IMG/VR virus record: IMGVR_UViG_2690316318_000024
DNA length: 9,273 bases
Source of the DNA: a virus
Taxonomy: Duplodnaviria; Heunggongvirae; Uroviricota; Caudoviricetes
Reading direction: 5' to 3' (one strand)
The position numbers and the translations under genes were made by a program. The notes under the pieces are model-generated. The model searched no databases. It was given only the letters and a program-made list of their open reading frames with translations, and was not told where the DNA came from. Shown here piece after piece: positions 3,074 through 4,633 of the stretch (positions are counted from its first letter, which is position 1; each line of letters starts with the position of its first letter).

Positions 3074-3760
3074 GTGAAAACACTGGCAGAACGATTAAAG
3101 ATAGGTAGAGAGAAAGCTGGCATGAGCCAAGCTCAACTAGCTGAAAAAATTGGACTTTCACAACAATCTGTAGCCAAAATAGAGAATGGCGAAACTCTAC
3201 AACCGCGCAAAATTAAAGAAATTGCAAAAGTTTTAGGTGTATCACAAAAGTGGTTACAACTTGGTATTGAAGACAACGCATCCATACCTGATCTTGTTGT
3301 AAAAGAAGCAGAAAGCACCGCATTAGACCCCGATATTTTCGTAAACATTCCTGTTTTAGATGTCGAGTTATCGGCAGGTAACGGATGTCTGGCTGAAATA
3401 GTTGAATCAGCTATTGACTGGTTTCCGTTAAGAAGAGCAGATTTGAGAAAATCTGGCGTATGTGCATCTAATGCCAAGATCGTAAAAATATGGGGGAACA
3501 GTTTATTACCGGTTCTCAATAATGGAGATCTTGTTGCCGTTGATATTTCTCAAACCATTCCTATTCGTGATGGCGATCTTTATGCCGTACGAGATGGTGT
3601 ATTGCTAAGGGTTAAAATACTTATCAACTTACCTGACGGTGGCTTGATTCTTAGAAGCTTCAACAAAGATGAGTACCCAGATGAAATACTCACCTTTGAA
3701 GATAGACGAGCCAGAATTCATGTTATAGGTAGGGTATTCTGGTCATCGCGAACTTGGTAA
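3074..3760 (+). CDS. cI: CI-like prophage repressor (N-terminal HTH_XRE domain + C-terminal S24 LexA-like self-cleaving peptidase domain), 228 aa, GTG start
   Basis: ORF track 3074..3760. GTG at 3074 follows GAGGG at about 6-nt spacing. HTH: MSQAQLAEKIGLSQQSVAKIENGE. S24 motifs: GNSLLP (catalytic Ser context) and LLRVKIL (catalytic Lys context). Confidence 0.85.
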   Translation: MKTLAERLKIGREKAGMSQAQLAEKIGLSQQSVAKIENGETLQPRKIKEIAKVLGVSQKWLQLGIEDNASIPDLVVKEAESTALDPDIFVNIPVLDVELSAGNGCLAEIVESAIDWFPLRRADLRKSGVCASNAKIVKIWGNSLLPVLNNGDLVAVDISQTIPIRDGDLYAVRDGVLLRVKILINLPDGGLILRSFNKDEYPDEILTFEDRRARIHVIGRVFWSSRTW

Positions 3761-4633
3761 TGCATCGAAAAGCATTTCTTCAGAAATAATTTTAAGTTTT
3801 GCACCATTATCATCCCTATAAGATATAGCTTTTTCGATCTTCCTTCCGTGACTTGAGAATTTCCAATCACGGGAGGAAAGCGTCCCAATTACTAAAAAAT
3901 CCAACTTTTGAGTAATTCCACTACTGATGTTCCCACCAGCATTTTTAATCAAATTTTCAACTACGGCTCTCTTTCCTGCAACAAAAGTGCCTGTAAGACA
4001 ATAGGTTTTACCCTCTAACTCTATCGAAGCCCCTACATCAATAGGCAGCCTGGTCGCCAAACCATCCACCACCCCACTTTCCAAGTCACATCCTGTGAAG
4101 TCTACTAATGCCTTATGTAGAGTTAAACTCTCATCTTCAGTAATAACCCCATCTTTAAGAATTTCCTTTACAAGTGCATAAAGTTTTTTTCCTGGGTAGT
4201 TGTTCTTCAAAGCTCCATTTTGCTCAAGCCACCAATTAAGATATCTTATTTCTTCTTGAGTTAAGTTCCGATCAGCAATTAATCCTTTACATAGTCCATT
4301 AAGTAAATGGACATCTACATCCTTGGAGTAAAAATCAATTTCAGGGATATCAAGAATTTCCCTCTGTATTTGGAGAAGGCTATTTTTAAGGTCATCACGT
4401 TCTTCTGATGTGATTATTCCATCCGCAAGAATATCCGACACCCGTGCTGATAGACTTTTTATAACTCCATTATTGATAATCTGCTTTGCTTCAAGTAACC
4501 ATGTATCTAAGTAAAGAACCTCCTCTTCACGGACAACTCCATCTGCAATGATTCCATCAATGATGCTAATCAAGTTAGCAAATAACTTGTCCCGGTTCTG
4601 TGTGTAATTAAAAGCGTAAAGCGCGTCTTCCAT
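3743..4633 (-). CDS. Accessory protein with four TerB-like helical repeats (ADG-x-I-x3-E-x3-L) and a C-terminal BRCT domain; 296 aa from ATG at 4633 (ORF track extends to GTG at 4663)
   Basis: ATG at 4633..4631 preceded by AAAGGAGG. Repeats IIDGIIADGVVREEEVLYL / ILADGIITSEERDDLKNSL / LIADRNLTQEEIRYLNWWL / ILKDGVITEDESLTLHKAL. C-terminus GKTYCLTGTF...AGGNISSGITQKLDFLVIG...AKLKIISEEMLFDAL matches the BRCT pattern of NAD-dependent ligase C-termini. Visibly AT-rich; 3' end overlaps cI convergently by 18 nt. Confidence 0.8.
   Translation of the reverse strand: MEDALYAFNYTQNRDKLFANLISIIDGIIADGVVREEEVLYLDTWLLEAKQIINNGVIKSLSARVSDILADGIITSEERDDLKNSLLQIQREILDIPEIDFYSKDVDVHLLNGLCKGLIADRNLTQEEIRYLNWWLEQNGALKNNYPGKKLYALVKEILKDGVITEDESLTLHKALVDFTGCDLESGVVDGLATRLPIDVGASIELEGKTYCLTGTFVAGKRAVVENLIKNAGGNISSGITQKLDFLVIGTLSSRDWKFSSHGRKIEKAISYRDDNGAKLKIISEEMLFDALPSSR

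Follow-up and report, generated by a model that had tools for sequence, protein, structure and literature searches.

A helical-bundle and BRCT-domain protein in the rexAB position of a prophage immunity module, a candidate for superinfection exclusion

The gene between cI and OL

The subject here is a gene for a 296-aa BRCT-domain protein carried by a 9,273-nt stretch of Caudoviricetes DNA (IMG/VR record IMGVR_UViG_2690316318_000024; the whole of the stretch that was analysed is referred to below as the window). The window corresponds to a prophage early region, with left-arm genes that match those of SfIV/SfV-type phages and the yfdPQR genes of KplE1/CPS-53 type, and the gene in question (the BRCT gene) occupies positions 3743-4633 of its minus strand, stop codon included. 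It lies between the gene for a cI-type repressor (3074-3760, plus strand; HTH_3 and Peptidase_S24 by Pfam) and OL/pL, where a pL-like promoter and operators are found at 4683-4740, and it is convergent with cI, the 3' ends of the two genes overlapping by 18 nt (3743-3760). The original prediction, made from the letters of the sequence, had described just this position on the strand opposite to cI, and had likened it to the slot between cI and OL where lambda keeps its rex genes; both descriptions hold. No terminator was found between the two reading frames and, given also the overlap, the transcripts of cI and of the BRCT gene would therefore each run antisense into the other gene.

The open reading frame is real and its coordinates are exact, since a ribosome-binding site is kept, an identical coding sequence is in RefSeq, a known protein family matches from end to end and relatives are legion. 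The predicted strong ribosome-binding site of its own is AAGGAGG (4638-4644, minus strand), which is separated by a spacer of 4 nt from the ATG at 4633; the earliest in-frame start would be a GTG at 4663, but in an alignment of related loci the sequence 5' of the ATG is subject to indels and divergence and yet the ribosome-binding site is retained, in diverged loci also. The product is an exact match to RefSeq WP_000389078.1, ‘BRCT domain-containing protein’. PHROG 3989, which is of unknown function, covers it nearly completely (residues 2-295 against profile positions 2-295 of 296, E 1.5e-128), and an exhaustive search at E<=0.001 recovered relatives that form 2857 clusters at 50% identity. 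At an identity of at least 95% the gene is present in 47 of 5426 complete Escherichia coli genomes, and is chromosomal every time.

Protein anatomy

The protein was modelled with AlphaFold from an alignment of 74 diverse relatives, at very high confidence (pLDDT 93.5, pTM 0.90), and the model divides it into two helical bundles followed by a BRCT domain. Residues 8-186 are wholly helical and are a tandem duplication. Bundle 1 (residues 8-98; positions 4340-4612, minus strand) has two helix-loop-helix repeats, with helices modelled at pLDDT above 90, and bundle 2 (residues 99-186; 4076-4339, minus strand) is its duplicate, the two units being matched by hhalign with a probability of 99.7% and an E-value of 4.7e-27. 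In profile-profile comparisons of the half-repeats, the first with the third and the second with the fourth score 98-99%, against 55-92% for the cross-comparisons. A motif D[GR]x[VIL]xxxE accordingly recurs four times, starting at residues 31, 71, 121 and 161 (D31..E38 and D71..E78 in the first bundle, D121..E128 and D161..E168 in the second), and in bundle 1 E38 is invariant and D31 nearly so across the family. The four helical repeats that had been discerned by eye are thus well founded.

The TerB-like label that had been put on them is another matter. Pfam TerB (PF05099) gives no match to the window protein at E<=0.1, and none to its halves at E<=10. It is matched by only 6 of the 74 family members at E<0.01 (best E 9.5e-5), and while it is the top Pfam match of the family consensus, where the weak similarity maps to bundle 2, the scores of 18.5-20.4 bits fall short of the gathering cut-off of 24.4. 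A search of PDB sequences with the family profile did not establish a TerB assignment, nor did the bundles yield a fold match to TerB. With similarity for protein, halves and consensus alike below threshold, TerB membership is not established. What is shared with TerB, and with TerB-containing systems such as Shango, is the use of repeated helix-loop-helix units with acidic D..E motifs, so that the bundles may be termed TerB-like at the level of the motif but are not demonstrably TerB.

The C-terminal BRCT domain (residues 206-290; 3764-4018, minus strand) is, by contrast with the bundles, readily recognized: Pfam BRCT (PF00533) scores it at 29.0 bits against a gathering cut-off of 21.3, matches 63 of the 74 family members too, and the predicted structure has the beta-alpha-beta-beta-alpha-beta-alpha order of the BRCT fold, as had been foreseen. 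To which kind of BRCT domain does it belong? With the family profile, the BRCT domain of RFC1 (p140) is matched at E 2e-8 and those of bacterial LigA at E 4e-7 to 2.5e-6, ahead of any BRCT domain of the tandem phosphopeptide-binding sort, and RFC1 and LigA domains are the best matches by sequence and by structure, among them 2k7f, in which the RFC1 BRCT domain was modelled with double-stranded DNA. The BRCT domain of subunit B of the phage PR1 ligase is a further look-alike. By profile comparison, then, the domain falls in the RFC1/LigA DNA-binding class, in keeping with the earlier surmise that it points to DNA recognition. Domains of this class bind DNA, and that of RFC1 binds 5'-phosphorylated ends. 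The positions concerned, T-G, R and K, are conserved in the window protein as T214, G215, R222 and K265, each in at least 90% of the family, and we infer that T214-G215, R222 and K265 fit a phosphate-binding pocket. The charge of the protein is divided likewise, residues 1-100 being acidic (pI 4.2) and residues 206-296 basic (pI 9.4).

In other respects it departs from RFC1 and LigA. It lacks ligase and clamp-loader domains, and ahead of BRCT helix 2 some 9 residues (SRDW..S.G), with W257 and G263 invariant, form an insert particular to the family. Some relatives bear the names ‘NAD-dependent DNA ligase’ or ‘DNA polymerase III epsilon’; these names have been rejected, as only the BRCT domain matches. 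LigA models align with the BRCT end alone, at 20-30 bits where their cut-offs are 369-1051, and Pfam finds none of the adenylation, OB-fold, zinc-finger and HhH domains of a ligase in the window protein. Nor was any catalytic domain detected in it by Pfam or by scans with family models.

Operators and promoters

The operator of the immunity region is a 15-bp palindrome, ACAAC-N5-GTTGT, for which a palindrome search that tolerated up to one mismatch gave five sites in the window. Two of them, at 3006-3020 and 3030-3044, are the OR operators. On the other side of the BRCT gene lie OL-b (4683-4697), which reads ACAACTTTATGTGGT on the minus strand and is kept in all aligned loci, and OL-a (4726-4740), also conserved, which lies over the start of pL. 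The pL-like promoter itself (4697-4740, plus strand, with OL-a included) consists of TTGACA at 4697-4702, a spacer of 17 nt and TAAATT at 4720-4725; it scored 10 of 12 matches in a promoter scan and is conserved. Back to back with it, a sigma-70 promoter is predicted for the BRCT gene (4654-4682, minus strand), with a -35 element TTGAAC at 4682-4677, a 17-nt spacer, the TG of an extended -10 at 4662-4661 and a -10 element AAGGAT at 4659-4654. OL-b abuts this -35 element, its centre being at about -43, and shares one base with the -35 element of pL.

The consensus promoter scan of the window did not call the promoter of the BRCT gene because its -10 element is weak. Support for it came from an alignment of 13 loci whose BRCT proteins are 57-100% identical. 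In these the -35 element is conserved (as TTGATT; TTGAAC here), as is TGnAAGGAT, and the spacer that separates them is constant at 17 nt in length and variable in sequence. Conserved hexamers flanking a variable spacer presumably mark a real promoter with a weak extended -10. The predicted promoter of cI is laid out alike, with the operator at 3006-3020 abutting TTGGAA/TGGAAA and a weak TAACCT following, both elements being conserved. For CI placed next to a -35 element and stimulating transcription from it, lambda OR2 and PRM are the reference case, and the PRM-like geometry at OL suggests that the BRCT gene would be expressed in lysogens. Two terminator-like hairpins picked up by a terminator scan lie 5' of the promoter on its own strand (4841-4822 and 4769-4753), and probably insulate the gene from read-through.

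Conservation and loss

How constant is the pairing with cI? In the loci fetched, where genes were called with a simple longest-ORF script, every one of the 80 viral contigs has the convergent cI/BRCT pair, as do 9 genome loci of the same clade, with homologues 56-100% identical to the window protein; the genome loci are from Citrobacter, Serratia, Providencia and Rosenbergiella, together with one contig labelled Pseudomonas lundensis. The 3' ends of the pair overlap by 9-18 nt in nearly all related loci. Farther off in the family, an Aeromonadaceae locus is arranged likewise, its repressor being of the S24 type and no close homologue of the window cI. From locus to locus the identities of BRCT protein and cI drop in parallel (100/99.5, 83/85, 76/81, 69/72 and 57/61%) and the neighbouring gene on the pL side changes. 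Because the pair is constant, its identities co-diverge and the pL-side neighbours vary, the BRCT gene is best regarded, from these comparisons, as an old resident that is ancestral to the cI module and not a recent insertion. It would be wrong to go further and take the co-divergence as a sign of functional coupling to CI, since anything located between cI and the OL operators travels with them; that use of it has been rejected.

The AT-richness of the gene, which the original prediction had read as a mark of separate acquisition, is real (38.0% GC against 45.6% for the window) but is equally a property of its neighbours: cI has 39.9%, cro (a cro-like YdaS gene, 2690-2938, minus strand) 42.2% and a nearby gene of the ECs1072 family 38.2%. 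With that, and with co-divergence and the secondary loss described next, recent separate acquisition has been set aside.

In E. coli 20Ec-P-124 all that follows an 83.7% identical cI is the two ends of a BRCT gene, along with the ribosome-binding site and what is left of a promoter that has decayed. The remnant (locus L172, 3323-3520, corresponding to 3760-4700 of the window) has an internal deletion of about 700 nt which left the last ~125 nt and the first ~25 nt of the gene. The same cI allele is carried by 24 complete E. coli genomes, one of which was inspected, and none of the 24 turned up when the complete genomes were searched with the BRCT gene. The gene is thus dispensable for keeping the immunity module, and was lost secondarily in one E. 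coli lineage.

Relatives in other phages

The architecture had at first seemed to be without a known counterpart, and here the earlier view has to be given up. By alignment the window protein is a member of the K139 Orf2/PHROG 3989 family, which is known but barely characterized, and its C-terminal module occurs also in the PADLOC candidate system PDC-S48. Orf2 of Vibrio phage K139 (NP_536630) is 33% identical over 95% coverage, has the same domain order over its full length and, like the window gene, adjoins a phage repressor gene. The K139 order is cI-orf2-glo-int, with orf2 downstream of a promoter that is annotated in the record as that of the lysogenic operon. The settings differ in that K139 is a P2-like myovirus with a CI of the 186 type and an orf2 co-directional with cI, whereas the window gene accompanies an S24-type repressor, is inverted and so convergent with cI, and has an operator-flanked promoter of its own. 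A role for Orf2 in preventing superinfection was reportedly given by Nesper and colleagues in 1999. K139 as a phage is listed in a general statement among those whose lysogen-expressed proteins prevent superinfection (PMC3564112).

Adjacency to repressor genes is not peculiar to K139, and the survey of homologues for it that the original prediction had called for bears this out well beyond the Enterobacterales pair. In Pseudomonas Detrevirus phages phi1, FBPa47 and U7 a short form with one bundle is encoded 29 nt after the repressor gene, and in phage PG1 the homologue is one gene past an S24 repressor. An Aeromonas caviae P2-like prophage (L159-L161, 3362-4891) has paralogues in tandem between cI and int, a short one of 206 aa (one bundle and BRCT) and a long one of 296 aa. 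The repressors that adjoin homologues are of two unrelated types, S24 and 186/P2-type CI, the repressors of K139 and of locus L163 being 186-type. In Lodos and D14L the homologue is in an int-proximal cargo cluster, beside a lipoprotein gene. In Sulfurimonas phage SNW-1 (L156, 3429-4486) a one-bundle homologue is found where the repressor would be expected, divergent from cII, and a thermonuclease gene starts 3 nt after it.

Relatives outside phages

The C-terminal module also occurs joined to a DEDDh exonuclease, as in PDC-S48. Residues 119-251 of the window protein (a helical unit and part of BRCT) match positions 239-377 of the 411 of the PDC-S48 profile at E 2.4e-7. True members such as P0189 and P0221 match the DEDDh model too, P0221 covering profile positions 18-379, whereas the window protein has a second helical unit where the N-terminal exonuclease would be. 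It has not been counted a PDC-S48 protein because the exonuclease is missing. In other fusions the module is joined to HhH and BRCT domains, or is part of a 2042-aa SF1 helicase with an MTES_1575 nuclease domain.

Several neighbourhoods are of a defence type; the original prediction had associated TerB-like domains with stress and defence loci. One operon has genes for a helicase-nuclease, an SMC-like ATPase, a DEDDh exonuclease, the BRCT homologue and an ion channel. In a P2-like prophage the homologue comes directly after the CI gene, and downstream of it, on the other strand and ahead of int, genes for an ion channel and next for AIPR and TIR are found. Further homologues are neighbours of AbiE and Fic, of an AAA_15 ATPase with a reverse transcriptase (RVT), or of a Schlafen-like gene. 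As an association this part of the earlier claim is upheld by these distant homologues and by the nuclease and helicase fusions; the part that leaned on TerB is not supported, the assignment being sub-threshold. Closely related Ion_trans genes, potassium-channel-like, stand beside homologues in three independent contexts (L019, 4877-5587; L163, 4983-5690; L165, 4887-5588), an arrangement that recalls the Rex pair of sensor and channel. Many marine gammaproteobacterial homologues, on the other hand, are in surroundings of ordinary appearance, with TonB receptor, SPFH/NfeD, PFL and PTS genes for neighbours.

Other features of the region

Beyond pL, at about 4885-5512, are small genes on both strands that vary between loci. 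In the window they are a cargo gene of PHROG 1744 (4885-5106, plus strand) and one of the ECs1072 family (5078-5512, minus strand), both of unknown function, convergent and overlapping. The pair is 98-99% identical to that of Shigella phage SfIV, Escherichia phage Kati and related Escherichia phages; SfV has only a 68-nt stretch of it, and other carriers of the cI/BRCT module are without it. From 6376 onward come yfdQ, yfdR, xis and int, on the plus strand.

A hairpin element at 4750-4780 (GGCAGGACGCC...), just 3' of the pL start, is conserved where the pL-side genes differ; it has the form of a terminator on the minus strand, and could be a nut-like leader structure on the pL transcript. The fifth of the operator-like palindromes (5739-5753, ACAACTTTATGCTGT) is about 1 kb from OL, in an island of 55-56% GC (5550-6000) where searches for protein families, Rfam elements and tRNAs matched nothing; it might serve looping as a distal operator, or be there by chance. 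Rfam and tRNA scans of the window as a whole were empty.

What might the protein do?

The position invites comparison with lambda RexA/RexB, whose slot from cI to OL/pL the window gene shares and with which it would be expected to share expression in the lysogen; Stk of 933W and Hex of 434 are other immunity-region exclusion genes that are likened to it by slot. The comparison has its limits. There is no relationship to Rex in sequence or fold, the window gene is not in the cI transcript because it is on the opposite strand, and the prophage has a single gene, with no membrane partner in the module, where Rex has two components. The likeness to a RexA sensor with its RexB channel is to be looked for instead in those distant homologues that adjoin an ion-channel gene.

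We propose that the BRCT gene is lysogen-expressed cargo of the prophage immunity module in the rexAB position; that it is an accessory gene of that module, expressed in lysogens, is probable in the light of the operator and promoter layout. Transcription would start at the gene's own weak, extended -10 promoter, and CI bound at OL-b would allow or even stimulate this promoter while CI at OL-a shuts pL, because the operator abuts the -35 element as it does at the predicted cI promoter. The product may be a cytoplasmic, non-catalytic sensor or adaptor, in which the BRCT domain would recognize a structure in phage DNA, for instance 5'-phosphorylated ends or nicks, and the helical bundles would serve as the regulatory or ligand-binding part. 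Recognition might then block the processing of phage DNA or engage host effectors, with protection of the lysogen from superinfecting phages as the most likely outcome. On domain content and context the protein is a good candidate for a role in superinfection exclusion or defence, a verdict on which we are evenly poised. The specific mechanism, recognition of DNA ends, is offered more tentatively.

A wider conjecture, which we hold as possible and rather doubtful, is that bacterial immunity has, in the helical-bundle and BRCT module, an infection sensor of a new kind, which reads DNA ends, nicks or some phosphorylated or nucleotide signal. The prophage form would then be under direct positive CI control from a second PRM-like promoter at OL, in other defence loci the module would be coupled to nucleases, helicase-nucleases or ion channels, and the stand-alone form, being enzyme-free, might act by, for example, capping phage cos ends or nicks in competition with LigA.

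Several observations weigh against the exclusion proposal. An effector domain is missing from the window protein, as is a conserved partner for its gene; the gene is outside the cI transcript; the -10 element of the promoter is poor (3/6), and from beside a promoter an operator can mediate repression as well as activation. Chromosomal neighbourhoods of ordinary appearance surround many distant homologues (Pseudohongiella, SAR86, Photobacterium), and therefore the family is not exclusively of phage or of defence. Finally, evidence from neighbourhoods is of association only, and PDC-S48 is itself a candidate system.

Might the protein rather be an accessory regulator of the choice between lysis and lysogeny, which senses DNA damage such as gaps or ends and modulates the inactivation of repressor, and so induction? 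There is a precedent in 434 Hex, a second lysogen-expressed protein that limits RecA-mediated repressor cleavage, and strict adjacency to repressor genes in many unrelated phages, as well as a BRCT domain of a DNA-binding class suited to sensing damage, would be in accord with it. In the literature consulted (on BRCT with anti-phage or prophage, PDC-S48 and WP_000389078.1) the single mention of the family, a passing one in a 2026 preprint, tends in this direction: modules of cI and BRCT are said there to replace quorum-sensing modules in Roseobacter prophages, and a DNA-damage response is guessed at. We nevertheless consider such a regulator unlikely. Two unrelated C-terminal types are represented among the partner repressors, S24 autoproteases and 186/P2-type CI, and a role in RecA-dependent S24 cleavage is weakened because the repressors of K139 and L163 are 186-type. 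A related immunity module, recognized by its cI allele, persists in the 24 E. coli genomes, and in the one inspected the gene is deleted; many homologues have no repressor nearby and are in defence islands or ordinary chromosomal loci; and co-divergence with cI is no more than would be expected of a gene between cI and OL.

An accessory of benefit to the host, for stress or DNA repair, such as a metal- or damage-responsive DNA-end binder brought in as lysogenic-conversion cargo, strikes us as decidedly improbable. The conserved non-phage contexts in Pseudohongiella, SAR86 and Photobacterium might be so explained, as might the TerB similarity, but the latter is at the motif level, sub-threshold and without a TerB fold match, and several non-phage members are flanked by recognized defence genes. 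Fusion or adjacency to a DEDDh exonuclease, to HhH and BRCT domains and to an SbcC-like ATPase is found in repair-type architectures also; the phage-borne members, however, are specifically in an immunity or lysogenic operon. As to a lytic-cycle factor of DNA metabolism (end protection, ligation or replication), made after induction when CI leaves OL, the resemblance of its BRCT domain to those of LigA and PR1 ligase subunit B, the nuclease gene after the SNW-1 homologue and the thought that a promoter beside OL operators could equally be CI-repressed give it little standing against the absence of ligase catalytic domains, an operator that abuts the -35 element and covers neither hexamer, as at the predicted cI promoter, the existence of natural deletion derivatives and homologues that are co-directional with and directly after the repressor in K139, Detrevirus phages, PG1 and Aeromonas prophages (K139 orf2 being past the annotated promoter of the lysogenic operon), and we regard it as very improbable indeed.

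Perspective

Four things are new in this analysis: the PRM-like layout of operator and promoter, a convergent partnership with cI that is constant in Enterobacterales, a natural derivative in which the gene is deleted, and a module that is repeatedly coupled to nucleases and ion channels. Immunity-region cargo such as rexAB, stk and hex opened the study of exclusion by prophages, and few such families are understood. The present one is large, with its 2857 clusters, and its position next to the repressor recurs in lambdoid, P2-like and D3-like phages from several classes of proteobacteria. Should it prove to be a defence factor, BRCT, a hallmark of eukaryotic DNA-damage signalling, would enter bacterial immunity, and the protein would provide a simple one-protein model of how a non-enzymatic sensor can block a phage. 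And if the predicted CI-dependent promoter at OL is what it seems, it would be a second instance of repressor-activated transcription within one phage.

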